DNA from: Elusimicrobiota bacterium
GTDB taxonomy: Bacteria; Elusimicrobiota; Elusimicrobia; Elusimicrobiales; UBA9959
Assembly: GCA_027340875.1 (NCBI GenBank)
Contig: DAIENX010000002.1
Coordinates: 25,429-89,428 of the forward strand
Length of the DNA stretch: 64,000 bases
Direction: 5' to 3'
Position 1 is the first letter of the stretch. Every line of letters begins with the position of its first letter. Shown here one piece after another: positions 138 through 17,389 of this stretch. Both the position numbers and the translations under genes were made by a program. Below the pieces are notes generated by a model, which saw only the letters and a program-made list of their open reading frames with translations, ran no database searches and was not told where the DNA came from.

Positions 138-776
138 ATGAACAAGAACATGAGAGTAACGACGAAGGCCAGGCACGCCTATACGCAGGCGTACGCCAAC
201 TACCTGCGCAGCGGGAACCTGGAGGAGGCCACGCGGCAGGTGGCGCAGGAGATTTACGAGCACAGGGGCAAGGCCCCCGGCACTCCGGACGGAGACTGGG
301 CGGAAGCCGCTAGGATAACGGCCGAATGGCCGGAGACGATAACGGAGGCCTCGGAGTCGCACCTGTTCGACAAGGCGCTGGCGAAGACGCGCGCCTGGCT
401 GAAGGACGTGGAAACGGAGCTGGACTACACCAATCCGAACGACGCCTACCGCGCCCTGCGCGCCGTTCTGCACGCCATCCGCGACAGGCTGCCGGTGCAG
501 GAGTGCGCCGAGTTCGCCTCGCAGATGCCGGTGTTGATAGCCGGCATGTATTACAGCGGCTGGACCCCGGCCAACAAGCCGGAGAAGCTGCGCACCGAGA
601 CGGAGTTCTTCGGGAAGGTGGGCGCCGCGCTGCCGCCCGGGGCGGACCCGGAGCGCGTTACCAGGGGCGTAATAGCCGTCCTGCAGAAGCATATCTCCCC
701 GGGGGAGATGAAGGACGTGAAGAGGAACTTTCCCGAGCGCCTGCGGTACCTCTGGGAGACCGAGGGAACGCACTGA
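138..776 (+). CDS. conserved hypothetical protein, DUF2934-like N-terminus plus DUF2267-like body
   Basis: 212-aa ORF with a purine-rich SD (AAAGGGGGGAAA) directly upstream of ATG 138. EIYEHRG..PDGDWAEA and ..HISPGEMKDVKRNFPERLRYLW resemble these DUF families as I recall them; not searched. Confidence 0.45.
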   Translation: MNKNMRVTTKARHAYTQAYANYLRSGNLEEATRQVAQEIYEHRGKAPGTPDGDWAEAARITAEWPETITEASESHLFDKALAKTRAWLKDVETELDYTNPNDAYRALRAVLHAIRDRLPVQECAEFASQMPVLIAGMYYSGWTPANKPEKLRTETEFFGKVGAALPPGADPERVTRGVIAVLQKHISPGEMKDVKRNFPERLRYLWETEGTH

Positions 777-821: not shown

Positions 822-1535
822 TCAGGCCTTGAGCAGCGGGAGCACGGCCTTCTCCAGGTCGCGCGCGAAGGCGGTGTTCAGCAGGTCGGCCGGCCTGCCG
901 AGGGCCGTTTCCAACCCGTCGTCGAACCGGATGCCCGGGGAGGAGCCGGCGCGGCCGGAGCGGCCGCGCATGTTCTCCACCACGCCCAGCAGCGGTACCC
1001 CCAGCCTGCGGTAGAGCTCCAGCGAGCGCTCCAATACCGACCTGGCCATAACCGACGGGGTCGTCACCGCCAGCACCTCGGCCTTGGGCAGCAGCCTTAT
1101 GGCGTCGAGCGCGGTGTCGTTTATGCCGGGGGGCATGTCCACCACCAGGAAATCAAGGTCGCCCCACAGGGTGACCGCCAGCATCTCCACCACCGCGCCG
1201 GAGATATCGGCGCCGCGCAGCGGCACCGCCCTGCCCGAAGAGAAGAAAGAGACCGACATGAACCTTACGCCGGACACCTCCGGCGGAAGAAGGCCCATCT
1301 CCTCCTCCGGGTAGGCGCCGTCGGCGCCCAGGGCCACGTGGGCTGACGCCCCGCAGAAGTCCAGGTCGGCCAGACCGGTCCTGTAGCCTTTCTTCGCCAG
1401 CAGCAGGGCCAGCGTGGAGGCCGTGACGCTCTTGCCTATGCCGCCTTTCCAGCCGGTGACGGCGATGACGCGCTTCACCCTGGCCAGCCTGTCTCCTATG
1501 ACCGAGGGCCTCGGGTCTATCCTCGTCGGGGTCAT
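822..1535 (-). CDS. Mrp/MinD-family P-loop ATPase, probable ATPase-type HypB (nickel-insertion partner of HypA)
   Basis: Start taken at Met62 of ORF 822..1718 (ATG 1533-1535), which overlaps the hypA stop as ATGA. Deviant Walker A VTGWKGGIGKSV and DLDF / VVDMPPG motifs are typical of Mrp/NBP35/MinD. The upstream part of the ORF is Arg/Pro-rich and overlaps hypA. Confidence 0.6.
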   Translation of the reverse strand: MTPTRIDPRPSVIGDRLARVKRVIAVTGWKGGIGKSVTASTLALLLAKKGYRTGLADLDFCGASAHVALGADGAYPEEEMGLLPPEVSGVRFMSVSFFSSGRAVPLRGADISGAVVEMLAVTLWGDLDFLVVDMPPGINDTALDAIRLLPKAEVLAVTTPSVMARSVLERSLELYRRLGVPLLGVVENMRGRSGRAGSSPGIRFDDGLETALGRPADLLNTAFARDLEKAVLPLLKA

Positions 1536-1933
1536 TTTTCCCCCTTGAGGTATTTGATGTAGACGCCGCGGCCCGACTTCACCTCGAAGTCGGGGCTCGC
1601 GCAGGCGGGGCAGGCCAGGAAGGCGTGAGCGAGCTCCGGTATGAAATGGATGTTCTCGCCTTCCTCGTCGGTCTTCTTCAGGTGCTCCAGCGTGAAGTCC
1701 TTGCCGCAGGCGCGGCACCCGAAGGCGGCGGCTTCCTCTATGAGCTTGAAGCTGCAGGCGGGCGGCGGCGTGTCCTTGAGCAGCTCGCGCAGCGCCGTGG
1801 AGAAGATGTCCCTGTCTATGGCCTGCAGTTCGCCCAGCACCACGCCTATCTCCGAGAGTCTGCGGATCTTCTCCGAGGCCGCGTGCTTGTTAGCGGATTT
1901 TACCACCGATTCGGCTAGAGCCCATTCGTGCAT
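1532..1933 (-). CDS. hypA: hydrogenase nickel incorporation protein HypA
   Basis: 133 aa. N-terminal MHEWALA (MHE Ni-binding motif) and two CxxC pairs (CRACG, CPACAS) forming the Zn site. Confidence 0.85.
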   Translation of the reverse strand: MHEWALAESVVKSANKHAASEKIRRLSEIGVVLGELQAIDRDIFSTALRELLKDTPPPACSFKLIEEAAAFGCRACGKDFTLEHLKKTDEEGENIHFIPELAHAFLACPACASPDFEVKSGRGVYIKYLKGEK

Positions 1934-1934
1934 A

Positions 1935-3113
1935 TCAGCGTCCTATGTCCGTGGGCGCGCGGCCCAGGGAGTTCAGCAGCTTCACAACGGCCTGGATGCG
2001 GGAAGGCACGTCGTCCTCCACGCCGGCCCGGCCGGGGTAGATCTCGTACTGCCTGCGGTACTTCACCGGGGTCACGTTGATCATCAGGGAGTTCGCGCCG
2101 GCCATCAGCCCTTCCCTGGCGCCGTTGTCCTTGTCGAGCGTCTCGAGCGCGGTGGTGACCAGGATGTTGGCCTCCGGGTTCATCAGCCGGGCTCGTGCTA
2201 TGGTGTCCAGCATGGAGCCCAGCGGCGGCAACTTCTCCGCGGAAAGCGGCGTCTCGGGGTGCGGGATGAACGGGCCGAAAGAGAACATCTCCGCGCCCAG
2301 CTCGGCGGTGAGCCGGATGTTCCTGAAGGTGTCGCGGTTGGAGCCGCCCGGCAGGCCGGCGAGGAAGCCCGTGATGATCATGTAGCCGAGTTCCCGGACG
2401 CCGCGTATCAGTTCCAGCCGCGCGTCCAGAGAAGCGCCGGGCTTCATGCGGCCGAACAGGTCCGGGTTCGAGGTCTCGAAGCGCATAAGTACGCCGCGGG
2501 CGCCGGCCTTGTAGAGCGCGGCGTAGGTGGAAAGCGGGCGCGGGCCGATGCTGACTATCAGCAGCACCGGGCAGCGCTTAAGGATGCCCGAGACTATGCG
2601 GGCGAGCTTCGCCTCGTCGTACCAGGGGTCCTCGCCGGACTGGAGCACCAGGGCCTTGAACCCCAGCTCCTTCACGGCGTATTCCACCGCGTCGAGGATC
2701 TCGTCCTCGGTCATGCGGTAGCGGCCGACGGCGGAGTTGTCGCGGCGCAGGCCGCAGTAGAGGCAGTTGGCCGCGCAATGGCTGGAGAACTCGAGGATGC
2801 CGTGCACGCAGCAGGAGTTGCCGAGCTTCTTCTGCCGTACGGCGTTGGCGCGCTCGTGGAGCGTGCGCGGCGCGGCGGCCAGCTTCCTGTCGGTGTCGCG
2901 CAGGCGGAAGAAGAGCCGGCGCCACTCGGCCATGATCTCCATGGCCTCGTCCTCCGGCACGGTCTGGATCACGAAACCGCCCTGCGCGTAGACGTAGTCG
3001 CCTACCGAGACGCTGGCCAGGCCCGTGTGCGCCTTCTTGGTCTCGTCGAAGTACTCTATGGTGGCGGCGAAGCCTTCTAGCTTTACCACCTTGCCGGGTA
3101 TGGCGTAGCACAT
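1935..3113 (-). CDS. hydE: HypC-like domain fused to HydE-type radical SAM maturase
   Basis: 392 aa. Residues 1-~70 (MCYAIPGKVVKLEG...GDYVYAQGGFVIQ) match the HypC/HupF pattern, including the invariant Cys2. The remainder carries SSHCAANCLYCGLRRDN (CX3CX2C followed by GLRRDN, characteristic of HydE) and a BioB/HydE-like TIM-barrel core. Confidence 0.75.
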   Translation of the reverse strand: MCYAIPGKVVKLEGFAATIEYFDETKKAHTGLASVSVGDYVYAQGGFVIQTVPEDEAMEIMAEWRRLFFRLRDTDRKLAAAPRTLHERANAVRQKKLGNSCCVHGILEFSSHCAANCLYCGLRRDNSAVGRYRMTEDEILDAVEYAVKELGFKALVLQSGEDPWYDEAKLARIVSGILKRCPVLLIVSIGPRPLSTYAALYKAGARGVLMRFETSNPDLFGRMKPGASLDARLELIRGVRELGYMIITGFLAGLPGGSNRDTFRNIRLTAELGAEMFSFGPFIPHPETPLSAEKLPPLGSMLDTIARARLMNPEANILVTTALETLDKDNGAREGLMAGANSLMINVTPVKYRRQYEIYPGRAGVEDDVPSRIQAVVKLLNSLGRAPTDIGR

Positions 3114-3122
3114 GGCGAGCTC

Positions 3123-4499
3123 CTAGAAGTAGAGGTCCCTGCGGCCCCTGGCTATCTGGGCGAGGCGCCTGCCGGCCTCTTCCCTCAGGGCCAGGTTCTC
3201 GATGCCGCCTACGCATCTGCGGATGAGCTCCCTGCCCTTCCGGCGCAGCCCGGCGTCGCCGAAGTCGCTCAGGTACTCGGCGAAGGTCAGGGCGGCGTTC
3301 AGGTCGCAGAACTTGTGGATGTGGCCGGGCTTGGAGAGCTCCATGAATCGCTCTCCGGTGCGGCCGCTGCGGTAGCAGGCCGTGCAGAAGCTGGGTATCA
3401 GGTCGCTCTCGGCCGCGGCGCGCACCACCTCGCGCAGCGGGCGGGCGTCGTGGATGTCGAACTGAGGCTGCCTGGCGCCGCTGCAGTAGCCGCCGGTCAC
3501 CGGCACGGAGCCGGCGGAAGCCTGCGAGACGCCGATGTCGAAGGCCCTGCGGCGGATCTCGGGACTTTCCCGGGTGGACAGGATGATGCCGGCGTAGGGC
3601 ATGGCCAGCCGGAGTATGGCTATCAGCTTCAGGAAGTCGGCGTCGCTGACGGGATGGGCCGGCTTGTAGCTGACCGAGGGGGCCTCGCGCAGCCTTGGCA
3701 CGGAGATGGTGTGGGGGCCGACGTTGTGCACTGCCTCCAGGTTCCTCGCGTGCGCGGCCAGGCCCAGCAGCTCGAAGCGCCAGTCGTAGAGCCCGAACAG
3801 GACCCCCAGGCCGACGTCGTCTATGCCGCCCTCGAAGGCTCGGCCCGGAGCCCCGAGCTGCCGCTCATAGTCCGCTTTGGGGCCGGTGTGCAGGCTCTCG
3901 TAGGTGGGGCGGTGATAGGTCTCCTGGAAAAGCTGGTAGGTGCCGATGCCGGCCTCCTTGAGCTTTCTGTAGTTCTCTGGTGTGGTGGCGGCGATGTTGA
4001 CGTTGACCCTGCGGATGTTGCCCTTCGGGACCTTCACCGAGTAGATCCTCTTTATCACGCTTACGATGTAGTCTATCGTGTTGCGGGACGGGTCCTCGCC
4101 GGCCTCGAGCAGGATGCGTTTGTGGCCCTGGCCTATCAGGAACCTGGTCTCCCTCTCCACCTCGGCCAGCGTCAGCTTGCGCCTGCTCATGCTCCTATTG
4201 GCGGAGCGGAAGTTGCAGTAGCAGCACTCGTTGACGCAGTGGTCGGAGACGTAGAGCGGCGCGAACAGGACCAGCCTGCGCCCGTATATCTCGCGCTTTA
4301 CTTCGGAGGCGGCGCGGAACAGCCGCTCGGTCAGCGCGGTATCGGTGACGTGCACCAGCCTGGCGACGTCGGCCAGGGCGAGGCCTTTCTTCTTCCGCGC
4401 CTTCTCTATTATCGCGGCGATCTCGCCGTTCGACGGGTTCTTGGCCCTGTCGAGCATGTCCTGCAGGAAGCCGGTCCTCAGCGATAGCGGCACGGTCAT
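3123..4499 (-). CDS. hydG: HydG-type radical SAM tyrosine lyase (H-cluster CO/CN synthon maturase family)
   Basis: 458 aa. It has the ThiH/HydG N-terminal cluster motif SDHCVNECCYCNF and the HydG-specific C-terminal motif SFCTACYRSGRTGERFMEL...HIHKFCDLNA (CX2CX22C). Confidence 0.85.
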   Translation of the reverse strand: MTVPLSLRTGFLQDMLDRAKNPSNGEIAAIIEKARKKKGLALADVARLVHVTDTALTERLFRAASEVKREIYGRRLVLFAPLYVSDHCVNECCYCNFRSANRSMSRRKLTLAEVERETRFLIGQGHKRILLEAGEDPSRNTIDYIVSVIKRIYSVKVPKGNIRRVNVNIAATTPENYRKLKEAGIGTYQLFQETYHRPTYESLHTGPKADYERQLGAPGRAFEGGIDDVGLGVLFGLYDWRFELLGLAAHARNLEAVHNVGPHTISVPRLREAPSVSYKPAHPVSDADFLKLIAILRLAMPYAGIILSTRESPEIRRRAFDIGVSQASAGSVPVTGGYCSGARQPQFDIHDARPLREVVRAAAESDLIPSFCTACYRSGRTGERFMELSKPGHIHKFCDLNAALTFAEYLSDFGDAGLRRKGRELIRRCVGGIENLALREEAGRRLAQIARGRRDLYF

Positions 4500-4556: not shown

Positions 4557-5045
4557 TCAACGGGGCCCGAATTCCAGCAGGCAGCCCAGTATCAGCCGCG
4601 CGGAGCTCTCTACTTCCCGCGACAGGCCGGCGCCGTAGGCGGTGTTCTTGGGCTGTATGCCCAGAAACACGGTGCGGGCGCTGGTGTCCTCGCCTATTAT
4701 CCCGGCGACTACGCTCAGCGGTATGGAATGGGTGGAGAGGGTGCCTTCTCCGATGTGTTCCGGAGCTATGACGCGCACCTCGCCCGGGCTGCCGCCGAAA
4801 TCCGCCGCGTCGATGAATATCACCTTCGCCGGCTTCAGCCCGGCGGCCTTGTCGACCACGCTCTCCGGCCTATCGAAGGCGTTGATGAGTCTGAAGCCCA
4901 GCTCCCGGCCCAGCAGGCGGCCGCCGATGAACGGCCCCACCCCGTCGTCGCCCCTGAACGGGTTGCCGACCGTTATCACGAGGGTGTCGCCGCCCTCGCA
5001 GGGGGCCAGCGCCTGCCTGGCTTCAGCGGTTAACGTAGGTGACAT
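4557..5045 (-). CDS. [NiFe] hydrogenase maturation endopeptidase (HycI/HyaD/FrhD family)
   Basis: 162 aa. VGNPFRGDDGVGP motif and a downstream His (STHSIPL). Overlaps the 3' end of the large-subunit gene by 23 nt. Confidence 0.8.
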   Translation of the reverse strand: MSPTLTAEARQALAPCEGGDTLVITVGNPFRGDDGVGPFIGGRLLGRELGFRLINAFDRPESVVDKAAGLKPAKVIFIDAADFGGSPGEVRVIAPEHIGEGTLSTHSIPLSVVAGIIGEDTSARTVFLGIQPKNTAYGAGLSREVESSARLILGCLLEFGPR

Positions 5046-6351
5046 TGAGCATATGCGTCGAGCAGGAGATGCAGGGGTCGTAGGCCCTTACCAGCATCTC
5101 GAGCGCGAGCGTTATCTCCTCTTCGGTCTTGTGCAGTATCTCCGGCAGCAGTTTCTTCATGTCGTGCTGGATATTGTTGATGTTCTGGTTCGTCGGGATG
5201 ATGCAGTTGGCGTTGACTATGGCGCCCTTGGCGTCCGTCTGGTAGTTGTGGAACAGCGTCCCGCGCGGCACCTCCACGGCGCCCACGCCGTCCCCGGCGC
5301 GGAGCGGGACCTTGCCCTGTTCGTTCACCCCGACCAGCACCTGCTCGTCGTAGTTGATCCCGCGCTTGCGCAGGTCGTTCAGGATGGCGATCGCGTCCTC
5401 CAGGCAGTGCACGCACTCCACCAGCTGGGCGGCGGTGTTGAGGTAGGGGTTGCGGCAGACGGGTTTCAGGCCTATCCGCTCGGCCACGGCCTTGGCGTCC
5501 GGGTGCAGCTTGGCGGAGTTGAGATTGAAGCGGGCCAGCGCGCCTACCGCGTAGGACTCGCGGCTGAGCTTCGTGAACTTGGCGGAGGAGCGCGGGTCCA
5601 CGAACTCGTTGGTGACCTTCCTGTACTCCTTCTTGCTCATCCGCACGCCGTCCGTGGAGCCGATGTCCCCCTCCAGGAACGGGTACTCGGGGCCGTCGTT
5701 GACCATGGCCACGTACTCGGTGTCGCGCTCGAACTCCGGGAACTTGAAGCCGGCGGCCAGGTCCACGGTCACGGCCATGTCCGCGCGCATGCCGCGCAGG
5801 ATGTTCAGCATGCGGTCTATGTCGTGCTCGGAGGGCAGCTTGGTGAAGCCTCCGGCGACGCAGGAGATCGGGTGCACATGGCGGCCGACCAGGATCTCGC
5901 AGAGGTCGTTGCAGTCCTTCTTCATGCGCAGTGCCCGCCTGACCACCTTGTTGTGCGTGGCCACCAGCGGCACGAAGCTCTTGACCCCCAGCATGTCCGG
6001 GGCTACCAGCAGGTAGATGTGCAGGATATGGCTGTCCAGCGTCTCGAAGTGCATCAGCAGCTTGCGCAGCTTCAGGGTCTGGTCGGTGGGGGCTATCCCG
6101 AGGGCGTCCTCGGCGGCCTGTATGGAGGCCAGCGAATGGCCGCACGAGCAGATGCCGCAGATGCGGCTGGTGATGTGCTGCGCCTCGAACACCGAGCGGC
6201 CGCGCAGCATGCCCTCGAAGAAGCGCGGGGCCTCGACGACGTTGAACTCGCATTTCTCTATGCGGCCCTCCCTGACGTTGACCACGATGTTGCCGTGGCC
6301 CTCGACGCGGGTGACGTATTCGCTCTTGATGTCTACGTTCTTGTTAGCCAT
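5023..6351 (-). CDS. hyhL: [NiFe] hydrogenase large (alpha) subunit, group 3b type
   Basis: Start at MANKNV (ATG 6349-6351) inside the longer ORF 5023..6954. N-terminal Ni-Fe motif RICGICSCGHS and C-terminal DPCISCSTH followed by a short cleavable tail (MLNVTYVNR). Group 3b is inferred from the AsrA/AsrB-like partner subunits. Confidence 0.88.
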   Translation of the reverse strand: MANKNVDIKSEYVTRVEGHGNIVVNVREGRIEKCEFNVVEAPRFFEGMLRGRSVFEAQHITSRICGICSCGHSLASIQAAEDALGIAPTDQTLKLRKLLMHFETLDSHILHIYLLVAPDMLGVKSFVPLVATHNKVVRRALRMKKDCNDLCEILVGRHVHPISCVAGGFTKLPSEHDIDRMLNILRGMRADMAVTVDLAAGFKFPEFERDTEYVAMVNDGPEYPFLEGDIGSTDGVRMSKKEYRKVTNEFVDPRSSAKFTKLSRESYAVGALARFNLNSAKLHPDAKAVAERIGLKPVCRNPYLNTAAQLVECVHCLEDAIAILNDLRKRGINYDEQVLVGVNEQGKVPLRAGDGVGAVEVPRGTLFHNYQTDAKGAIVNANCIIPTNQNINNIQHDMKKLLPEILHKTEEEITLALEMLVRAYDPCISCSTHMLNVTYVNR

Positions 6352-7094
6352 TATTTCTTTCCTTCCCTGCACTTGTTGTACATGTCCATCTTCGCGGCTA
6401 TCATCGCGGGGGTCACGTTGTACTTGGCCATCACGTCCTTGGCGGCGTTCTCGCGCGGGTTGCTGATCATGCCGCGGCAGCCGTAGCAGACGTTGTTGTT
6501 GTTGACGCACCAGGAATTGCAGCCCGCCCTGGTGACCGGGCCCATGCAGGTCACGCCGCGCTCGTACATGCAGACGTTCTCGTTGAACTTGCACTCCACG
6601 CAGACCGGGTGGTCCGGCACGGTATAGGGCATCCCCTTCAGGATGTGCTTGAGGACCTCCACCAGCTCGGGGATGTAGGCCGGGCAGTTGTTGATGGTGT
6701 AGTCCACCTTGACCACCTGGTGCAGCGGCCTGGTCTTGGCGGTGGGGAAGCTCTTGTGGTCGGCGCCGTAGACGTACTTGCCTATCTCCTCCAGGTCGAA
6801 CGAGTTCTTCATCCCGTTCACGCCGCCGGTGGCGGCGCAGGCGCCGAAGGCCACCAGGACCTTGGCCCTCTCCCGGATCTTCTTGAGCCGTTCCGCGGAG
6901 TGGTCGTCGGTGACGCTGCCCTCCACGAACGCTACGTCGTACTTCCATTCCCACTTCTCGGACATGACCTCGCGGAACTCCACTACGTCCACCAGCTCGA
7001 GCACGTCGAGCAGGGTCTCGCCCATGTTGGCGAGCTGCAATTGGCAGCCCTCGCAGCAGGACAGATCGAAGAAAGCGACTTTAGGTTTTGACAT
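6351..7094 (-). CDS. hyhS: [NiFe] hydrogenase small (delta) subunit, group 3b type
   Basis: Start at MSKPKVAFFDLSCCEGCQ (Met44 of ORF 6351..7223). Has Cys clusters for the proximal, medial and distal FeS sites (GACAATGG, CPAY, CVECK..C, GCNSWC..CYGC). Its TAA stop overlaps the hyhL ATG by 1 nt (TAATG). Confidence 0.85.
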   Translation of the reverse strand: MSKPKVAFFDLSCCEGCQLQLANMGETLLDVLELVDVVEFREVMSEKWEWKYDVAFVEGSVTDDHSAERLKKIRERAKVLVAFGACAATGGVNGMKNSFDLEEIGKYVYGADHKSFPTAKTRPLHQVVKVDYTINNCPAYIPELVEVLKHILKGMPYTVPDHPVCVECKFNENVCMYERGVTCMGPVTRAGCNSWCVNNNNVCYGCRGMISNPRENAAKDVMAKYNVTPAMIAAKMDMYNKCREGKK

Positions 7095-7108: not shown

Positions 7109-7951
7109 TCACATCTTGGCTACGTTCTTTATCCTGTCGTAGCTGAACACCGGCCCGTCCTGGCAGCAGTAGTAGTTGTCGATGCTGTCGATCTGGCAGT
7201 GCCCGCACTTCCCCATGCCGCATTTCATGTGCCGCTCCAGGGAGAGGATGATGTTGCGCTCGGCTATCTTCTTCTTCAGCAGCTCGGAGATCACGAACTT
7301 GTACATGACAGGGGGGCCTACCACCACGGCGAAGGTCCTCTCCGGGTTGATCGTGACGCCCGGGATGATGGAGGTTATCAGGCCGATGTTGCCGGCCCAG
7401 TCCGGGCTGCCCTTGTCCACGGTCACGTTGAAGTTGACGTCCACCCGCTTCTGCCAGAACTCCAGGTCGTCGGCGAAGAGCATCTCGCTGGGGTTGCGGC
7501 AGCCCAGCAGGATGTCCACCTTGCCGAACTCGCGCCGGTTGTCGATCACGTAGTTTATCAGCGAGCGCAGCGGCGCTATGCCGAGGCCGCCCGCCACGAA
7601 GATCAGGTCGTTGCCGGCCAGCACCTTGACCGGGAAGCCCTTGCCGAACGGGCCGCGGATGCCGATCTCGTCGCCGGCCTCGAGGGCGTGCATAGCGTTG
7701 GTGACCCGGCCGGCCGCGCGCACGCAGAGCTCGAAGGAGCCGCGCTTGGTGGGGGAGGAGCAGAGCGAGATAGGGGCCTCGCCCACGCCGAAGACCGAGA
7801 CCTGGACGAACTGGCCTGGCTCGTAGTCCATCGCGCGGCCGTTGTCCAGCTCTATCTCGAAGAGCTTCTCCGAGGGGGTCATCCGCTTGACGCGGATGAT
7901 GCGGCCTTTCCTGACGCGCCAGTTAGAGTTGACGAGCTCTTCCTTTATCAT
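7109..7951 (-). CDS. hyhG: hydrogenase gamma subunit, FAD/NAD(P)-binding with 2Fe-2S (AsrB/PyrK-like)
   Basis: 280 aa starting at MIKEEL (Met243 of ORF 7109..8677). Ferredoxin-reductase-type fold motifs (GPFG, VAGGLGIAP) and a C-terminal CGMGKCGHCQ cluster. Confidence 0.8.
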   Translation of the reverse strand: MIKEELVNSNWRVRKGRIIRVKRMTPSEKLFEIELDNGRAMDYEPGQFVQVSVFGVGEAPISLCSSPTKRGSFELCVRAAGRVTNAMHALEAGDEIGIRGPFGKGFPVKVLAGNDLIFVAGGLGIAPLRSLINYVIDNRREFGKVDILLGCRNPSEMLFADDLEFWQKRVDVNFNVTVDKGSPDWAGNIGLITSIIPGVTINPERTFAVVVGPPVMYKFVISELLKKKIAERNIILSLERHMKCGMGKCGHCQIDSIDNYYCCQDGPVFSYDRIKNVAKM

Positions 7952-8994
7952 GCGGCCTCCTTTACCAGTGCTGTAAGCGTTTCCTTGAGCCGGATGCCCG
8001 CCATGCAGGTCCGGGTGCACCTGCCGCAGCCGGTGCAGAAGAAGCGGTAGTACTTGCCGAGCGAGAAGCGGAACTTGCGGTAATGGCGGTGCCGCAGGCG
8101 CTCGGCCTGGCCGCTGCGGAAATTCTCGCCGCCGGCCACCTTGGCGAAGGTCTCGACCTCGCAGGAATCCCAGGTCCGGACGCGCTTGCCGCTCTTCAGG
8201 TCCAGGTTCAGCGTGTCGGCTATGTCGAAGCAGTAGCAGGTGGGGCAGACGTTGGTGCAGTTGCCGCAGCCCAGGCATTTGTCCCCGATGGCCTTCCAGA
8301 CCGGGCTGTTCTCGCTCTTGTCGAAGATGGCCGGGAGCTTCTTGCGGTCGACGTTCACCTCGTCCTTGAAGCGGGAGCGCTTGGCGTCCCTGATGGCGTA
8401 GAGCGCCTCCATCTGGGCCTGCGTGGCGGGCTTGAACAGGTTGCTGCTGTCCACCAGGTCGTCGCCGGCCTGGGTGTTCACGTGCGCCATGAAGACCTCT
8501 CCCATGTCGGTGAAGAACAGGTCGTAGCCGCCGTTGGGGAAGTTCGAGTTCATCAGGTTGCAGCTGGCGTGCTCGTCGCAGTACTCGGTGCACTCCAGGC
8601 CGATGACGGTTATGTTGTCCTTGCGGCGCAGGTAGTTGTAGTCGCGCGGTCTTTCGGAGAAGACGATGTTCAGGCACTGGATGCCGTTCAGGTCGCAGGT
8701 GTGGACTCCGAAGATGACGGTGTTCTCGTGCTCGAGCAGGGCCTCGGCGTTCTCCACGTGGCCGGTGCTGAAGCTCAGCATCGTCTCCTTCTGCGGCAGG
8801 AAGTACTTCTTGGGGGGCAGTATCGTGGGTATGTGCTTGAGGGCTATGTCGTTAGCGGAGGTGACCTCCGTGAAGGCGTAGTTGCCGTAGCCCTTGCTGA
8901 CCGGCGCCACCACCTTGTGATTGCGCGAGAGCTTCACGATGAAGCTGTTAAGGTCGTCTTTTCTGAGGATGAAGTACCGCGTGTGCGTTCCCAT
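7948..8994 (-). CDS. hyhB: hydrogenase beta subunit, 4Fe-4S dicluster protein (AsrA-like)
   Basis: Start at MGTHTRYF (Met32 of ORF 7948..9087) with GGAGG 6 nt upstream. CLGCGNCTNVCPTCYC and CTGCGRCTRTC ferredoxin motifs. ATGA overlap with hyhG. Confidence 0.8.
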   Translation of the reverse strand: MGTHTRYFILRKDDLNSFIVKLSRNHKVVAPVSKGYGNYAFTEVTSANDIALKHIPTILPPKKYFLPQKETMLSFSTGHVENAEALLEHENTVIFGVHTCDLNGIQCLNIVFSERPRDYNYLRRKDNITVIGLECTEYCDEHASCNLMNSNFPNGGYDLFFTDMGEVFMAHVNTQAGDDLVDSSNLFKPATQAQMEALYAIRDAKRSRFKDEVNVDRKKLPAIFDKSENSPVWKAIGDKCLGCGNCTNVCPTCYCFDIADTLNLDLKSGKRVRTWDSCEVETFAKVAGGENFRSGQAERLRHRHYRKFRFSLGKYYRFFCTGCGRCTRTCMAGIRLKETLTALVKEAA

Positions 8995-10087: not shown

Positions 10088-10825
10088 TTAGTAGCACTGA
10101 CCCTGGTAGGTATAGATCTTCTCGGTCTCGACGGACTTGCCGGTGTAGCTGCCGAGCGTCTGATCGCCCTGCACGAACCCGGCGGCCAGGTCGCGCGTGG
10201 TGGTCTGGAAGTGGAAGGTCACGTTCTGGTGGCCCCACTGGGTGACCCACTGGGTGTAGCAGTTGGGGACGTGCGGAGGCTGGCCCTGGAAGTCGGGGGT
10301 GTGCACCGCGACCGGGTTGGGCACGGAAGGAGCCTGGCGGCTGCCGATCTCGTCCTGGCCGAGGCCGGCTTCCAGCGTCTTGGAGGCGGCGGTCTCATTG
10401 GACTTAAGGGCGCGGCAGATGGTCTCCGGGCGCTGGTAGGTGCAGGACTCCCAGCCGGACTGGTCGGCGGAGTTAGTGACGACGGTCTTCATCGTGCCCT
10501 TCAGGCCGAAGTTCTGGCCGATCTGGGCGGGGGTGAGGTCGAAGGTCTCGCCGATGTTGATGTTCTTGTCGAAGCTGATCTTGACCTTGGTGGGCTGGTC
10601 GGCGTTCTTGATCTCCAGCGTTATTTCCTTGTTGTTGCCGGACTTGCCGATGACGGCCTTGGTCTGGAACTGGCCGGGATTGATGGTCACGATCGCGCGG
10701 TTCTGGTTGGCGAAGGTCACAGGCGAAGTCAGGTCCAGCATACCGCCGAAGTTGATCTCGTTGCAGCCGACCAGGACGGCCATCATGGCGGCGATCCCGA
10801 GGCTGGATATTATCTTCTTGTTCAT
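10088..10825 (-). CDS. hypothetical lipoprotein
   Basis: 245 aa. Signal peptide with lipobox LVGC (MNKKIISSLGIAAMMAVLVGC) and SD AGGAGAG upstream. No family recognised. Lys/Asn/Thr/Gln-rich composition, unlike its neighbours. Confidence 0.7.
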   Translation of the reverse strand: MNKKIISSLGIAAMMAVLVGCNEINFGGMLDLTSPVTFANQNRAIVTINPGQFQTKAVIGKSGNNKEITLEIKNADQPTKVKISFDKNINIGETFDLTPAQIGQNFGLKGTMKTVVTNSADQSGWESCTYQRPETICRALKSNETAASKTLEAGLGQDEIGSRQAPSVPNPVAVHTPDFQGQPPHVPNCYTQWVTQWGHQNVTFHFQTTTRDLAAGFVQGDQTLGSYTGKSVETEKIYTYQGQCY

Positions 10826-10981: not shown

Positions 10982-11068
10982 TTCGGGCAAAGGTTCCCGG
11001 CGGCCGGCAACTATCCGAGCGCGGAGAAATAATAGTATCATGAGGCTCTAGGGCAGACCTTCATTAAT

Positions 11069-12235
11069 ATGGCGACGAAAAGACAAGGCCCCGCATGCGT
11101 GGTCTGGGAGCTGACGCTGGCCTGCAACCTCAAATGCCTGCATTGCGGCTCCACCGCGGGAGGGCGCCGCGAGGCCGAGCTTTCCACGGCCGAGGCGCTC
11201 GAGCTCTGTTCCGGCCTTAAGGAGGCCGGCTGCGGCGGCGTGGCCCTTATGGGCGGCGAGCCGCTGTTGAGGAAGGATTTCCCGGCCATCGCATCCAGGG
11301 TGAGGGAGCTGGGCATGGAGCTCTCCGTCATCACCAACGGCACGGTGCGGCCTGACGGGATATTTACCCTGCTGAAGAGCCTGGGCCCCAGGGCCGTGGC
11401 CATAAGCCTGGACGCGGCCGGCCCGGAGCTGCACGACCGGATACGCGGGGTCCCGGGCGCGTTCGCCAAGGCCTCTTCGTTCATCGAAGACGCGCTGAAA
11501 GCCGGCCTGCCGGTCAGCGTTATCACCACGGTGCATAAACTCAACATCTCCGAGCTTCCCGGGCTGCGCGATATAATAAAAGGAAGGGGGATAGCCTGGC
11601 AGGTGCAGACCGCCGGCGCGGAAGGCGGCCGTTTCTCGCGCGACCTGCTGCTGGACCAGGAGGAGTTCTATTCCGTCGGGATGTTCGTGGAATCCTGCCG
11701 CCGCGAATATTCCCCGGAGGAGCTCCCGGTCATAGGCGCCCATGACCTCGGCTACCATTCCCTGCTGCTGAAGAACGTCTCGCTCTACGAGAAATGGGAG
11801 GGCTGTCAGGCCGGCGTCTCGGTGGCCGGCATACGCAGCGACGGCGGCGTGCTCGGTTGCCTGGCGGTCAACGACGACCGCTTCGTGGAAGGCAGCGTGC
11901 GCAGGGAGCCGTTCCAGGCCATCTGGAGCCGGCCCGGCGCGTTCTCCTACGCGAGGGATTTTTCGCCCGGGAAGCTGGGGGAGAACTGTGCCGGCTGCGG
12001 TCACGCCGAGACCTGCCGCGGCGGCTGCAGCGAGATGTCGCTGATGAAGACGGGCCGTCCGCACAACGATCCCTATTGCTTCCGCGCCATAGAGGACAGG
12101 CTGTTCTTCAAAGGTCCCGGAGGGGCCGTCAGGAAGCTCGGCGCCTCTATCGCCGCCGGCCGCGGACGTGCGCCGTTCGGCCGGCTCGGCCGGATATTCT
12201 CGGGGAAAAGGGGGGAGGCCGGTGGAGACAGATAA
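11069..12235 (+). CDS. radical SAM protein with SPASM domain
   Basis: 388 aa. CNLKCLHC (CX3CX2C) at residues 19-26, GGEPLL, a twitch/SPASM region GCQAGVSVAGIRSDGGVLGC ... CAGCGHAETCRGGC. Confidence 0.8.
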   Translation: MATKRQGPACVVWELTLACNLKCLHCGSTAGGRREAELSTAEALELCSGLKEAGCGGVALMGGEPLLRKDFPAIASRVRELGMELSVITNGTVRPDGIFTLLKSLGPRAVAISLDAAGPELHDRIRGVPGAFAKASSFIEDALKAGLPVSVITTVHKLNISELPGLRDIIKGRGIAWQVQTAGAEGGRFSRDLLLDQEEFYSVGMFVESCRREYSPEELPVIGAHDLGYHSLLLKNVSLYEKWEGCQAGVSVAGIRSDGGVLGCLAVNDDRFVEGSVRREPFQAIWSRPGAFSYARDFSPGKLGENCAGCGHAETCRGGCSEMSLMKTGRPHNDPYCFRAIEDRLFFKGPGGAVRKLGASIAAGRGRAPFGRLGRIFSGKRGEAGGDR

Positions 12236-13202
12236 GGGCATACGCCTGAACCTGGGCTGCGGATATAACAGGCTCGAGGGCTGGCTTAACGCCGACGCCA
12301 GTCCGTACTCCGCGGCGGACCGCGTGATGGAGGCCCAGGACCTGGAGTTCGGGGCCTCGTCCGTGGAGGAGGTGAAGGCCCTGCAGCTCGTGGAGCATCT
12401 GGGCTTCTTCAGGACCAAGTATTTCCTGTCGGAATGCTGGCGGGTGCTGAAGCCCGGCGGCCGGCTGACGATAGAGACCCCGGACGTCGACGCGGCCTTC
12501 AGGGCCTATCTCGCGGGCGGTCACTCCGAGAAGGAGTCAGCGCTGGGCTGGATATTCGGTCCGGAGAGCCCGGGCATGCATCACCTCTACTGTTTCCCGC
12601 GGGAACTGCTGGCCGAGCTGCTCGCGGAGGCCGGCTTCTCCGTGGAAAAGCAGGAGGGCTTCCTGTTCCAGCCGTCCCGGCCGGCGCTGAGGTTCTCGGC
12701 CGTCAAGAAGGAAGGAGAGAAGGCTGCCCTTAATTCCGCCCTGCGCCGCCGCCTGCTGGACAGGGGGTTGGCCGCGTTCACGCGGGAGGAGGAGAGCGCG
12801 GGGCTGGAGCTGGCGGTGCGGAGGCTGGTGGCCGGCGGCGGGAATTCCGCGGCGGAGCTGGAGCAGGCCCTGATCAGCGCCCCGGCGGCCCTGGAGTATT
12901 TCGCGCTGGTGGAGGAGAACGAGCCGCGTCCGTCGCGCGAGGCGGCGGCCTGCGGCAGGCTGGCTTCCTGGTCGGCGCAGGGCAGGCTGGCGGCCGCGTT
13001 CCTGGAAGGGCTGCGCGGCGGGCTGGACGAGAACGCGGCGTTCTCGGCGGCGGAGTCGCTGGGCCGGCGCCTGCTCGCGGCCCCCCTGGAGGGCGGCGTC
13101 GAGCCGCCCGGGCCAAGGCCCCTGAACGGCGCCCCGGCGGCGTTCACTTTCGGCGCCGTTTCCGCCTGGGCTTTCCGCGAGAAGGCAGGCGGCAGGCGCT
13201 GA
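12222..13202 (+). CDS. class I SAM-dependent methyltransferase (Methyltransf_11-like) with an Ala-rich C-terminal extension
   Basis: GTG 12222 is preceded by GGGGAGG and overlaps the radical SAM gene by 14 nt. Motifs LNLGCGYNRLEGWLNAD, LQLVEHL and LKPGGRLTIETP. The C-terminal ~170 aa have no recognisable domain. Confidence 0.6.
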   Translation: METDKGIRLNLGCGYNRLEGWLNADASPYSAADRVMEAQDLEFGASSVEEVKALQLVEHLGFFRTKYFLSECWRVLKPGGRLTIETPDVDAAFRAYLAGGHSEKESALGWIFGPESPGMHHLYCFPRELLAELLAEAGFSVEKQEGFLFQPSRPALRFSAVKKEGEKAALNSALRRRLLDRGLAAFTREEESAGLELAVRRLVAGGGNSAAELEQALISAPAALEYFALVEENEPRPSREAAACGRLASWSAQGRLAAAFLEGLRGGLDENAAFSAAESLGRRLLAAPLEGGVEPPGPRPLNGAPAAFTFGAVSAWAFREKAGGRR

Positions 13203-13261: not shown

Positions 13262-13576
13262 GTGAATATGAAGAAACTTTTAGAGCTGGGCGCGAAGACG
13301 GGCCTGACCAAGGCCGAAGTGAACCGTGTGGCGAGGTTCGGGCTGCTGGGCCTGCTGGCCGTGGGCCTGGCCGGCATAGCGGGCTGCTTCAGGGCTCAGA
13401 AAGCGGAGGCGCCGCAGAGCGCCGATAAACCGGGCACTCTGCAGGATATAGTCAGCTCGGTGAACAAGAGCACCGGCGCCGCGCAGGGCCAGGACAACTG
13501 CGGTCCTTACCCGGGCTACCCCTGCGGCACCCGGTATTACACGGTGAGCGTTTCGGATTTCCGGCGGTCAGCCTGA
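13262..13576 (+). CDS. small lipoprotein with Cys/Pro/Tyr-rich C-terminal tail (candidate modified peptide)
   Basis: 104 aa (GTG 13262; alternative ATG 13268). GGAGG at 13250-13254 and TAGAAT at 13231-13236 upstream. Hydrophobic segment ending in lipobox IAGC. C-terminus NCGPYPGYPCGTRYYTVSVSDF. Confidence 0.5.
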   Translation: MNMKKLLELGAKTGLTKAEVNRVARFGLLGLLAVGLAGIAGCFRAQKAEAPQSADKPGTLQDIVSSVNKSTGAAQGQDNCGPYPGYPCGTRYYTVSVSDFRRSA

Positions 13577-14505
13577 TGAGGGCCTGGCTGCTTTCCGTTC
13601 TTTTCCTGCTCCCGTCGGCGGCGGGCGCTTTCGACTGCCCGGCCGCCGGGGAGAAGCCGGAAGACTGCCCGTGGGCAGGGGTCGCCAGGCTGGCGGCCGG
13701 CGGAGCGGATATCGCGAAGACCCTCCGGGAGCATGCGCCGGGCCTGCTGGCCCAGGTGGACGCCGACAAGGCCAACGGCCGCCTGCTCGGTCTCTGGGGG
13801 GAGAGCATCAACTACGACGAGCTGGCCGAAGGCCAGATCGTAGACCCCGGCATACTTGCTTTCATAGCCGCGCGCCTGGGCGCCCCCGCGCCGGACGGCA
13901 GGATCATGCACGCCGGAGCGGAGCACACCTACGGCTATCTTTTCAGTCTCCTGCCGACGAAGTTCGGCTTTAAAAGGGCGCGCTGGGTCCGGCCTGACAT
14001 CGAGGACGGCCTGGGGCTGCCTCGCGGCACGGCGGGACCTTCTCCGTCGTCCGGCACGCTGCTCTCCAACGTGACCTGCATAGCCGGCGGCATAGCCCTC
14101 CGGGACGACCCGCGAGCCTTCGCCTCGCTCAGGGAGGCCGGCGCTTCCTGCGCCCCCGCGGCGCGGCGCTTCATCGAGGCCGGGGCCGGGCGCGTCAGGC
14201 TCACTGAGGACGTCGGTCTGCCAGGCGGCAGGACGGTCTCGCTGCGCACCGATTTCGTCCGTTTCGCGAAGAGCTCCGGCACCAACTCGCGCCTGCTGAT
14301 CTACTCCGTCAAGGATTCCGCCGCGGCCCATGCCTACCTGGTCACGGCCTTCCCCGTAAGCGAGGAATTCGAGGAGAAGGCCACCGCCCGTTCCGGCCTG
14401 GGGACCGATAAGCCGGTGCAGACCCGCTACAACGCCTTCGTCCGCGGCCTGACCGGCGCCGGCAGGTTCAAGGGCCGGCGAAGCGCGGCTAAACTGGAAA
14501 AATGA
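13576..14505 (+). CDS. secreted hypothetical protein
   Basis: 309 aa. Signal peptide MRAWLLSVLFLLPSAAGA. Its ATG overlaps the upstream TGA by 1 nt. No family recognised. Confidence 0.55.
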   Translation: MRAWLLSVLFLLPSAAGAFDCPAAGEKPEDCPWAGVARLAAGGADIAKTLREHAPGLLAQVDADKANGRLLGLWGESINYDELAEGQIVDPGILAFIAARLGAPAPDGRIMHAGAEHTYGYLFSLLPTKFGFKRARWVRPDIEDGLGLPRGTAGPSPSSGTLLSNVTCIAGGIALRDDPRAFASLREAGASCAPAARRFIEAGAGRVRLTEDVGLPGGRTVSLRTDFVRFAKSSGTNSRLLIYSVKDSAAAHAYLVTAFPVSEEFEEKATARSGLGTDKPVQTRYNAFVRGLTGAGRFKGRRSAAKLEK

Positions 14506-15996: not shown

Positions 15997-17277
15997 TCAG
16001 CCGCGCTCGAATACCAGCAGCGTCTCGGCGTGAGGGGTGTTCGGGTAGAAGTCGAAGCCGGCCGAACGGGTCAGTTTGTATTTCTCCAGGAAGAAGGCCG
16101 CATCCCGACCCTGCGTTATCGGGTTGCAGGACAGGTAGATGATCTTCTTCGGCAGTATCTCCATGATGCGCTTTATGACCTTGTTGTGCAGGCCCGCGCG
16201 CGGCGGGTCCAGCACAAGTATGTCCGTGCCGTCGAAGAGGTTCTCCTTTGCCTTTTCGGAAAGCGAGCAGACCGTCTCGAAATTCCTCGCGCCGTTGGCC
16301 TCGGCGTTCAGCGCCGCGTACTTGGCCGAGCTGCCCGAGGCTTCCACCGCCAGCACCTTGTCGGCCAGGTCGCGCAGCGTCAGGCCTATAACGCCTACCC
16401 CCGAATAGAGGTCCACCAGCTTGCCGCATTTGAAGGCGGCCGCCCTTATCTCCTTCAGCGCCTCCGTGAACAGCTCGATGTTGTTCTGGAAGAAGCAGTC
16501 GAAGCCGTAGGAGAACTTCCCGCCGAGTATCTCCTCGGTGACGAAGTCGTCCCCCCAGGACTTCATGATGCCGTCCACCTGGCTGACCGAGCTGACGGGG
16601 TTGGAATAGATGGCCAGGAAGCCGTTGAGACCCTCCACCTTCATGTCGGGGAGCTGTATATCCTGCCTTTTCAGGAACAGGGCAGCCACGCGCGAGCCGG
16701 GGGTCTTGGCCTCGCGGATTATCAGCGTTTTGAGATCCGCCGTAGAAAGTTTCAGGGAGTTCAATATCTCCAGTATCCTCTTCGCGGCGGAGTTCGTTTC
16801 GGGGCTGATCAGCGCGCAGCCCTCGGGCAGCAGGTACTTCTCCCGGTAGTTGCCGCGCTTGTGGAAGGCGAAGGAAAGCGAGCCCGGTTCTCCGGTGAAG
16901 CTGTACTCTATCTTGGTCCGGTAGCCGTACGTCCTCTCGGCGCCGTAGAACTTGTCCAGCCGTATGGTCTCCTTCGTGGTCTGGTAGAGGAGGTCCTCTA
17001 TCAGGGCTTTCTTGGTCTCGCACTGGAAACCGTAGTCCATGACCTGCCACGGTGAACAGCTGAGGTAATGGTCCTCCTTAGGGGTCACGCGGTTAGGCGA
17101 AGGGGTGATTATCTCCAGCAGCTCGGCCTCCGCGAAGTTTCTCTTCTCGAAGGTGGTCCTGACCCGAGCGGTCTCGCCCGGCAGCACGCCGTAGCAGAAG
17201 ACCACCTTGCCCTCGCTGCGGCCTAGCGCCTTGCCTTCCCCTACTATCTTCTTGAATTCCAGCGTTATCTCTCTCAT
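15997..17277 (-). CDS. RNA (uracil-C5)-methyltransferase, TrmA/RlmD family
   Basis: 426 aa. N-terminal TRAM-like beta region, SAM motif LVDLYSGVGVIGL, LVLDPPRAGL and the catalytic YLSCNP motif. Confidence 0.75.
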   Translation of the reverse strand: MREITLEFKKIVGEGKALGRSEGKVVFCYGVLPGETARVRTTFEKRNFAEAELLEIITPSPNRVTPKEDHYLSCSPWQVMDYGFQCETKKALIEDLLYQTTKETIRLDKFYGAERTYGYRTKIEYSFTGEPGSLSFAFHKRGNYREKYLLPEGCALISPETNSAAKRILEILNSLKLSTADLKTLIIREAKTPGSRVAALFLKRQDIQLPDMKVEGLNGFLAIYSNPVSSVSQVDGIMKSWGDDFVTEEILGGKFSYGFDCFFQNNIELFTEALKEIRAAAFKCGKLVDLYSGVGVIGLTLRDLADKVLAVEASGSSAKYAALNAEANGARNFETVCSLSEKAKENLFDGTDILVLDPPRAGLHNKVIKRIMEILPKKIIYLSCNPITQGRDAAFFLEKYKLTRSAGFDFYPNTPHAETLLVFERG

Positions 17278-17389
17278 CGGTGTCCTGCCTTGCCCTCCCC
17301 CGGGCGGACTGCGGGGAGCGGCTGTTGTTCGTGAGGCTCAAAAAACGACGGCTAATATACTACAATACTTGGGGGGACGGCTCCCAATA

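Follow-up and report, generated by a model that had tools for sequence, protein, structure and literature searches.

[NiFe] and [FeFe] hydrogenases are a textbook case of convergent evolution, and their metal sites are built by unrelated maturation machineries. The iron of the [NiFe] site carries one CO and two CN ligands, and HypCDEF is treated as the universal route to this Fe(CN)2CO group; HypD acts as the scaffold, HypE and HypF make cyanide from carbamoyl phosphate, and the anaerobic origin of the CO ligand is unsettled. In the [FeFe] system, two Fe(I) units dimerise for HydF in an arginine- and threonine-lined pocket of HydE. A gene on contig DAIENX010000002.1 of an Elusimicrobiota bacterium (assembly GCA_027340875.1) appears to straddle this divide. 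It occupies 1935..3113 on the minus strand of a 64,000-nucleotide stretch of that contig (the window), and an original prediction made from the sequence alone described it as an in-frame fusion of a HypC domain with a HydE-type radical S-adenosylmethionine (SAM) enzyme. A HypC domain welded to a HydE-type enzyme would mean that the [FeFe] and [NiFe] systems share chemistry in nature. Is the fusion real, then, and which class of hydrogenase does it serve?

The fusion protein is real and widely conserved. On the reading favoured here, to which we give a probability of about 0.55, HydG and the fusion would together build a mono-iron carbonyl/cyanide unit and deliver it to [NiFe] large subunits. 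The fusion gene would then, with the same slight balance in its favour, be the central piece of an alternative [NiFe] iron-site assembly line made of [FeFe]-type parts. The case rests on the co-encoding of the fusion with HydG, a [NiFe] protease and nickel-insertion factors, on the lack of nearby HypDEF, and on a Cys/His-lined pocket in the HydE half.

A HypC domain and a HydE-type barrel in one reading frame

The gene is one unbroken open reading frame (ORF) of 392 codons plus a stop, with an ATG start and a TGA stop. It begins ATG-TGC (Met-Cys) and its translation opens MCYAIPGKVVKLEG... The HypC domain (residues 1 to about 75; 2889..3113, minus strand) runs into a linker, made of a long helix (residues 54-78) and a loop to residue 80 (2874..2954, minus strand), and this is followed by a complete HydE-type (beta-alpha)8 radical-SAM barrel (residues 81-392; 1938..2873, minus strand). 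Both domains are recognised by Pfam: HupF_HypC (PF01455) matches residues 1-63 with 50.8 bits against a gathering score of 28.5, Radical_SAM (PF04055) matches residues 108-260 with 51.4 bits, and BATS matches residues 282-364. The NCBIfam models see the same two domains, each with a score below the cut-off. The hypC_hupF model (TIGR00074) gives 42.5 bits, narrowly under its cut-off of 48, so that the N-terminal half passes one HypC profile and just misses the other. The rSAM_HydE model (TIGR03956) matches residues 81-384 with 224.7 bits (E 1.9e-66). This falls short of the 254.6 bits set as equivalog cut-off, and the first 26 positions of the profile have no counterpart in the protein.

Comparison with solved structures leads to the same division. 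Residues 84-387 align with residues 34-334 of T. maritima HydE (TmHydE; PDB 3cix/7o1o) at 220 bits, while residues 1-66 align with T. kodakarensis HypC (2z1c, E 5e-7; also 3vyr). What the original prediction saw in the sequence is thus borne out in full. AlphaFold2, run with a 47-sequence alignment, predicts one compact model with a mean predicted local distance difference test score (pLDDT) of 93.4 and a predicted TM-score of 0.91, in which only residues 1-3 are disordered. The best structural matches found with this model by Foldseek are TmHydE entries (TM 0.86-0.88 on target). Other radical-SAM profiles lie far behind HydE (PylB 110, BioB 72 and HmdB 59 bits), and a generic BioB-, PylB- or HmdB-type enzyme was ruled out because HydE comes top in both profile and structure matches.

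The HypC half is predicted to form a small beta-barrel resembling an oligonucleotide/oligosaccharide-binding (OB) fold, with strands at residues 7-13, 16-21, 24-29, 40-44 and 47-52 (pLDDT about 90) and a helix after them, as in HypC, HybG and HupF, whose barrel is likewise of about 50 residues. The Met-Cys start expected of a HypC is present, Cys2 being encoded at 3108-3110 (minus strand). The start M1-C2-Y3-x-I5-P6-G7 is invariant in the family alignments; M1, C2, P6 and G7 do not vary in alignments of 24, 47 and 61 sequences, and Cys2, Pro6 and Gly7, the Cys2-x3-Pro-Gly pattern of HypC proteins, are kept in 61/61 family members. There are also differences. The domain is tied to a 35-kDa enzyme, whereas HypC is a free protein of 8-10 kDa, and the position of E. 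coli HypC His51 is occupied by glutamine in 61/61 members (Gln44 in the window protein). The N-terminal half is thus a HypC-fold domain bearing Cys2, yet no textbook HypC. The linker helix is predicted with a pLDDT of about 90, and its residues W64, F68, L71 and D75 are invariant. In archaeal and some bacterial members the linker is some 35-40 residues longer, giving a total length of about 430 residues.

The fusion is not confined to this genome. At least 120 cluster representatives in a large protein collection, from Planctomycetota, Brocadiia, Omnitrophota, Elusimicrobiota and Lentisphaerae, each cover 100% of the fusion at 56-67% identity and contain PF01455 together with PF04055. When GTDB species were scanned with one genome each, a relative turned up in 410 genomes, extending the family to Firestonebacteria, WOR-3, Ignavibacteria, Zixibacteria, Margulis-/Saganbacteria and Spirochaetes, and to the DPANN archaea (Micr-, Aenigmat-, Woese-, Nano- and Altiarchaeota). 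A metagenome scan added at least 473 further relatives. An exhaustive search of the representatives also recovered triple fusions in the order HypC-HydE-HydG, namely P0121 (906 amino acids) and P0137 (881 amino acids). Unfused relatives begin at 48% identity. Some members exceed the cut-offs that the window protein misses: TIGR03956 is passed by P0138 (263 bits), P0121 (348 bits) and P0137 (371 bits), and TIGR00074 by P0137 (50.7 bits) and P0138 (53.7 bits). In the first family alignment (A1, columns 274-348), some members (P0016, P0028 and P0002/P0020/P0036) show insertions of 11-43 residues in two barrel loops, one after the GLP motif and one before MFSFGPF.

These data dispose of the concern that the architecture is an accident of assembly or annotation. 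A frameshift, a chimeric join, a mis-called start or a false-positive HypC match would be conceivable a priori, and the narrow miss of the NCBIfam HypC model could be taken to favour the last of these. However, the full-length conservation of the protein in at least 120 clusters and 410 genomes, from independent assemblies and several phyla, excludes an artefact by comparison with relatives rather than from sequencing reads. The invariant start, the conserved linker, the Pfam score above threshold, the matches to HypC structures and the confident single-chain model agree with this, leaving the artefact explanation a negligible probability.

A HydE core with a re-lined product pocket

The chemistry of HydE offers a basis for judging what the barrel might do. 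In TmHydE, the 5'-deoxyadenosyl radical attacks the cysteine sulfur of [Fe(Cys)(CO)2(CN)], the complex-B supplied by HydG; the resulting Fe(I)(CO)2(CN)(SH) unit moves from Met291 to Met224, and two such Fe(I) units join as a dimer in a cavity that V105, L157 and M291 line (PMC10114646, PMC11826987). R54, T134, R155 and T269 contact CN ligands at the dimerisation site (PMC11826987), and mutations at the product (S3) site impair [FeFe] maturation (PMC10114646). According to the TmHydE literature, this site and the exit lie at the barrel end opposite the SAM cluster.

The pocket positions were mapped by aligning the window protein and TmHydE with 42 fused proteins and a further 123 representatives. 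The radical-SAM site and the methionine relay are kept. The radical-SAM cluster motif C113-x3-C117-x2-C120 (2754..2777, minus strand), of the CX3CX2C form found in HydE, is invariant and aligns with C63, C67 and C70 of TmHydE; the equivalents of V105, L157 and T269 are also retained. Met276 (2286..2288, minus strand) corresponds to Met224, the iron-binding thioether of the product site, and is kept in 41/42 fused members. Met344 (2082..2084, minus strand) corresponds to Met291, described as an iron relay or backflow valve, and is kept in 39/42, the others having gaps or leucine; the family alignments A2 and A3 show it as invariant. The position of K309 is R362 in the window protein, with arginine in 32 and lysine in eight of the fused members. 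Cysteines for an auxiliary cluster are lacking, and the HydE N-terminus is replaced by the HypC domain and the long linker helix.

It is the product pocket that differs. At the N-terminal end of strand beta1, V51-H52-I-R54 of TmHydE gives way to C101-C102-V-H104 (2802..2813, minus strand). R54 is replaced by histidine in 42/42 fused members but is arginine in 107/123 of the other representatives; H52 is replaced by cysteine in 42/42, where the other representatives have histidine, tyrosine or phenylalanine; and V51 is replaced by cysteine in 35/42. T134 becomes phenylalanine, isoleucine or valine in the fused family (I186 in the window protein), and R155 becomes glycine or alanine in 42/42 (G207 in the window protein). 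Hence R54, T134 and R155 are all replaced in 42/42 fused members. Among 150 representatives, the signature C-[VIL]-H-G tracks the HypC domain perfectly; a few relatives that are unfused or truncated bear it as well. A neighbour-joining tree computed without the five pocket columns gathers all 51 C-x-H sequences, together with two intruders, on one branch; this grouping is an unrooted bipartition without bootstrap, the midpoint root having fallen inside the groups.

In the AlphaFold2 model the signature sits at the start of strand beta1 (residues 102-113), at the barrel end opposite the SAM cluster. As the linker helices precede beta1, barrel topology would place the HypC domain on the same side of the barrel as the signature. 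Judged by these substitutions, the HydE half is a distinct subfamily with a re-lined product pocket and no standard HydE. The original prediction of a full HydE-like enzyme therefore stands as regards the complete barrel, and needs amending for the pocket and for a score under the NCBIfam HydE cut-off.

A [NiFe] operon with HydG and without nearby HypDEF

The immediate surroundings of the fusion gene are those of a [NiFe] hydrogenase. It is the seventh of nine co-directional genes, separated by gaps of -23 to +57 nucleotides, in the order hyhB-hyhG-hyhS-hyhL-hycI-hydG-hypC/hydE-hypA-mrp, all on the minus strand. The first four encode the structural subunits of a group-3b-like [NiFe] hydrogenase: the beta iron-sulfur subunit HyhB (7948..8994; 348 amino acids; homologous to a protein with Fer4_22 in locus L089 of the relatives described below), the gamma diaphorase-type subunit HyhG (7109..7951; 280 amino acids; L089 homologue with NAD_binding_1 and DHODB_Fe-S_bind), a HyhS/delta-like small subunit (6351..7094; 247 amino acids; homologues with PF01058 in L089 and L092) and a HyhL-like large subunit (5023..6351; 442 amino acids; its homologues in related loci bear the label NiFeSe_Hases). 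This large subunit has the nickel-site motifs RICGICSCGH and, near its C-terminus, DPCISCSTH, followed by a nine-residue C-terminal extension. The next gene (4557..5045) encodes a HycI-type large-subunit maturation endopeptidase (PF01750; TIGR00072 97.4 bits).

HydG, the tyrosine lyase that synthesises CO and CN (3123..4499; 458 amino acids), scores 513.5 bits with TIGR03955 (cut-off 312) and aligns end to end with T. italicus HydG (4wcx) at 503 bits. Its C-terminal CX2CX22C motif, CTACYRSGRTGERFMELSKPGHIHKFC, aligns with that of the T. italicus protein; in HydG this motif holds the auxiliary cluster carrying the dangler iron. By sequence, the window HydG is canonical throughout. The hydG stop lies nine nucleotides upstream of the fusion start, and the two genes are in the same frame, with a TAG stop and three codons between them (TAG GAG CTC GCC ATG; 3114-3125, minus strand). 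HypC requires a free N-terminal cysteine. The shared frame is probably a coincidence, since the natural triple fusions run HypC-HydE-HydG, the opposite order.

On the other side, hypA (1532..1933; 133 amino acids) starts one nucleotide after the fusion stop. It encodes a nickel metallochaperone (PF01155, 76 bits) that matches the long, archaeal-type HypA model NF003008 (145.8 bits, cut-off 125). The ATG of the last gene, encoding a Mrp/NUBPL-type P-loop ATPase (822..1535; 237 amino acids from MTPTRID; PF10609, 160.9 bits), overlaps the hypA stop, and this gene occupies the place expected for the HypB GTPase. In the Thermococcales, Mrp/MinD-type ATPases act as HypB, and from its position the window ATPase is likely a HypB substitute. 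Among the genome loci, only L001 and L006 share this feature; in eight related loci, three of the genome set and five of the metagenome set, a classical HypB takes its place.

Is this arrangement typical of the family? For comparison, a set of 80 loci was collected from genomes and another of 80 from metagenomes, every locus reaching up to 10 kb on either side of a fusion relative (about 2.1 Mb in total; some contigs are shared). ORFs were called and compared by phmmer, at identical thresholds in both sets, with the window proteins, E. coli K-12 HypA-F, HycI and HycE, and bona fide HydF and HydA from the loci. HydG is the usual neighbour, being present in 55/80 genome and 48/80 metagenome loci and adjoining the fusion on the same strand in 53/80 of the former. 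A [NiFe] large subunit is encoded in 27/80 and 20/80 loci, and HycI in 24/80 and 19/80; in 14 and 7 of these, it is encoded on the same strand at most 150 bp from the HydG/fusion pair. HypA is found in 10/80 and 20/80 loci (within 150 bp and on the same strand in 7 and 16), and HypB in 3/80 and 5/80. Altogether, 37/80 loci of each set have one or more [NiFe]-specific genes (for the large subunit, HycI, HypA or HypB) within 10 kb. These [NiFe] counts are lower bounds, because just 42 genome and 21 metagenome loci reach 15 kb. By contrast, HydF occurs in 2/80 genome loci and 1/80 metagenome loci, HydA likewise in 2/80 and 1/80, and at least one of these [FeFe]-specific genes in 3/80 and 2/80. 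HypD, HypE, HypF and free HypC were detected in none of the 160 loci (for HypD, phmmer E<=1e-3 plus the motifs GPGCPVC and GFETT), nor in the 64-kb window, although the same phmmer runs did recover homologues of HycI, HypA, HypB and HycE.

Three kinds of [NiFe] enzyme flank the HydG/fusion pair: a group-3b-like four-subunit enzyme, a group-4 Mbh/HycE-like enzyme accompanied by Mrp-antiporter-like membrane subunits, and a further enzyme whose large subunit has about 480 residues. The association with three different hydrogenases speaks for a role in maturation and against one as a subunit. The triple fusions are in similar company. P0121 (L089) ends the series beta-gamma-small-large-HycI-cyclic nucleotide-binding protein-triple fusion, and P0137 (L092) is followed by a 188-residue protein, a small and a large subunit and, further on, HypA. 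An unfused C-x-H-type HydE, P0141 (L088), has a start codon that overlaps the stop of a [NiFe] large subunit (...DPCMSCAAH...; ...YDPCMSCAAHFLKVRWNEA*), with HydG next. No free HypC gene stands beside the unfused C-x-H-type HydE in L087 or L088: a small upstream ORF in L087, considered as a split HypC, was rejected as a winged-helix regulator, and the upstream ORF in L088 is the end of the [NiFe] large subunit.

The sole usable control with an arginine-type pocket (R-type), P0148, behaves differently; the contigs of P0142 and P0146 are too short to show neighbours. It is a HydE-HydG fusion lying between an [FeFe]-type sensory hydrogenase, with two-component genes, and HydF. Like the HypC-HydE fusion, it couples consecutive maturation steps covalently, but it stays within the [FeFe] system, as does the known algal HydEF fusion, whereas HypC-HydE crosses both systems. 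In L096 (85-7324), the gene for P0148 (803 amino acids) adjoins a fusion of the sensory [FeFe] hydrogenase with a histidine kinase (Fe_hyd_lg_C, HisKA and HATPase_c).

Several other neighbours were observed. A gene for a ThiF/MoeB-family adenylyltransferase (PF00899, 235.7 bits) lies directly upstream of hydG in L012 (7577-8356), L021 (11013-11621) and three more loci. In L081 and L082, from Hainich groundwater Omnitrophota, a 483-residue ORF without a Pfam match (7136-8587) lies between a molybdopterin oxidoreductase operon (Fer4-NrfD-Molybdopterin) and hydG; the L082 genes look split there, possibly reflecting a lower-quality long-read assembly. In L026 and L037 (5800-8650, 14640-21170), Rex-like regulators and an NfnAB/GltD-like pair lie on one side of the HydG/fusion pair, and an [FeFe] bifurcating-type cluster, Rex-HydF-(637 residues)-NuoE-NuoF-HydA, on the other.

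A proposed assembly line and its alternatives

What the data show is the conserved architecture, the altered pocket residues and the gene associations in the operon and around related fusions. The pathway proposed from them is our inference in all its chemistry, in the direction in which the iron unit is passed on and in the substitution for HypDEF. The neighbouring HydG would cleave tyrosine and make the cysteine-bound Fe(CO)2(CN) synthon. The HydE-type barrel of the fusion would accept this synthon, and its radical-SAM site would remove the cysteine backbone, as in HydE. The re-lined pocket, with Cys101-Cys102-x-His104 and both arginines gone, may then capture the mono-iron carbonyl/cyanide unit without dimerisation. 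Transfer to Cys2 of the tethered HypC domain would follow, and the HypC domain would place the unit into the apo large subunit, after which nickel would be added by HypA and the Mrp-type ATPase and the C-terminus trimmed by HycI. In such a scheme, the fusion would cover the tasks of HypD as scaffold and HypC as carrier, and HydG would stand in for HypE, HypF and the unknown anaerobic source of CO. Judging from operon content, the end appears to be the same as that of the HypCDEF pathway, a diatomic-ligand iron entering the large subunit through a HypC-type Cys2, with HypA/HypB nickel insertion and endopeptidase cleavage afterwards; the difference is that HydG and a radical-SAM barrel take the place of HypD, HypE and HypF. 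The hand-off between the two chemistries suggested in the original prediction fits the gene neighbourhoods, its chemistry being part of this proposal. More tentatively, and with odds somewhat against it, the data may point to a HypD/E/F-independent [NiFe] iron-site pathway that is widespread in uncultivated bacteria and DPANN archaea, in which HydG would derive both CO and CN from tyrosine, a specialised HydE barrel with a Cys-Cys-x-His pocket would make the mono-iron unit from the HydG synthon and the attached HypC domain would deliver it.

Several points weigh against this assignment to [NiFe] maturation. The product of HydG has two CO and one CN, the [NiFe] iron one CO and two CN, and a hypothetical ligand exchange would be needed. 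HypD, HypE and HypF could lie elsewhere in the carrier genomes, in which case the HydG/fusion pair might only supplement the Hyp pathway. The HypC half is without an equivalent of His51, and the HydE core is just moderately diverged from ordinary HydE, some members scoring above the equivalog cut-off. The presumed closeness of the Cys/His motif, Met276 and Cys2 is deduced solely from the topology of the barrel and from the literature on TmHydE. The [NiFe] association has its main exception in L026 and L037, from one Omnitrophota lineage, where the pair lies about 4-10 kb from bona fide HydF and a HydABC-type [FeFe] hydrogenase. A true HydA is also near the fusion in L021 and L127, where HypA and HypB directly follow it, and the fusions of all four loci are of the C-x-H type. 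Finally, several Planctomycetota/Brocadiia fusions stand alone, the 10 kb on either side being free of HydG and of hydrogenase genes. Short contigs make up many of the loci, and some contigs occur in both sets.

Two alternatives draw on these points. It is unlikely, though the possibility deserves weight, that HydG and the fusion supplement the standard pathway, supplying part of the iron site, most plausibly an Fe-CO unit, to which distant HypD, HypE and HypF add cyanides, or that one HydG/HydE-like module feeds both [NiFe] and [FeFe] enzymes. The [NiFe] neighbourhoods speak for this as much as for a self-sufficient assembly line; the ligand mismatch disappears; HydA, fusion, HypA and HypB occur together in L021 and L127; and the absence of HypDEF covers 10 kb on either side. 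Nevertheless, hypC, hypD, hypE and hypF usually cluster with hypA/hypB or with structural genes in canonical systems, and here 160 loci are without any of the four even though HypA or HypB can lie directly beside the fusion. Moreover, these loci have no free HypC to partner a distant HypD, and with both CO and cyanide coming from HydG, a separate HypEF would be superfluous. It is improbable, on the other hand, that the fusion is simply these lineages' ordinary HydE, maturing [FeFe] enzymes with HydG and HydF, with a borrowed OB-fold as an accessory domain for handling iron or synthon. The HypC-like domain could in that case receive complex-B from HydG or hand the product on to HydF, and the [NiFe] neighbours would reflect, with as little likelihood, the mere clustering of hydrogen-metabolism genes. 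This would suit the NCBI name of the family, the 220-bit match to TmHydE with its M224, M291 and K309 equivalents, the members above the TIGR03956 cut-off, HydG as the commonest neighbour, and the HydF and HydA genes of the four exceptional loci. Set against it, those genes never directly adjoin the fusion and occur in just the 3/80 and 2/80 loci noted above, while [NiFe]-specific genes occur in 37/80 of each set, often with overlapping or nearly overlapping reading frames. The pair shares operons with HycI and HypA/HypB, proteins that play no part in maturing [FeFe] enzymes, and all of R54, T134 and R155, which belong to the dimerisation and product site and matter for [FeFe] maturation in TmHydE, are replaced. 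The R-type control, P0148, does adjoin HydF as expected. The proposed assembly of [NiFe] iron sites by HydG and the fusion draws its strongest evidence from operon context, with HydG upstream and hycI, hypA and the Mrp-type ATPase around the fusion, a context that the original prediction overlooked.

If a HypD/E/F-independent pathway of this kind exists, it would link [FeFe] and [NiFe] maturation by a first biosynthetic bridge and define an anaerobic source of the [NiFe] CO ligand. The proposal, if right, would further make tyrosine a source of CO and CN in [NiFe] enzymes that can be tested, and would offer a two-gene iron-site module, reduced to one gene in the triple fusions, for making [NiFe] hydrogenases in other hosts. 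The fusion would also represent a natural HydE variant apparently halted at the mono-iron stage, useful for dissecting the debated mechanism of HydE. Confirmation of HypDEF independence would make the pathway new, although all parts of the fusion are of known kinds.

As far as can be told, the family is visible in public databases but uninterpreted. The architecture was unfamiliar when the gene was first noted, and PubMed Central open-access and bioRxiv texts to mid-2026, a body that leaves most subscription journals outside, yielded no account of a protein joining HypC to HydE or of a part played by HydG in [NiFe] maturation; only ten papers there since 2015 name both HypC and HydG. As a gene, however, the fusion is no singular oddity but one of a large family. 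A 2022 survey presents HypCDEF as a well-conserved route. The text of a 2024 Cell survey of archaeal hydrogenases records incomplete HydEFG sets in archaea and contains no HypC-HydE architecture. In the databases, hundreds of fusion genes are labelled '[FeFe] hydrogenase H-cluster radical SAM maturase HydE' (NCBI) or 'biotin synthase', and others HypC. As a result of the HydE labels, metabolic reconstructions can infer [FeFe] maturation where the context is [NiFe].

The rest of the window lies apart from this subject. Genes past 9.1 kb are unrelated to the hydrogenase operon. They include a 1784-residue ORF (22086-27440, minus strand) with no Pfam match at E<=1e-5, and further long ORFs likewise without a match at 10088-10825, 11048-12418, 12168-13202, 13576-14505 and 17207-18568; with a genome of 64% G+C, some of these may be no genes. 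At the opposite end, just downstream of the last gene of the operon, a divergent gene (138-776, plus strand) encodes a DUF2267 protein.

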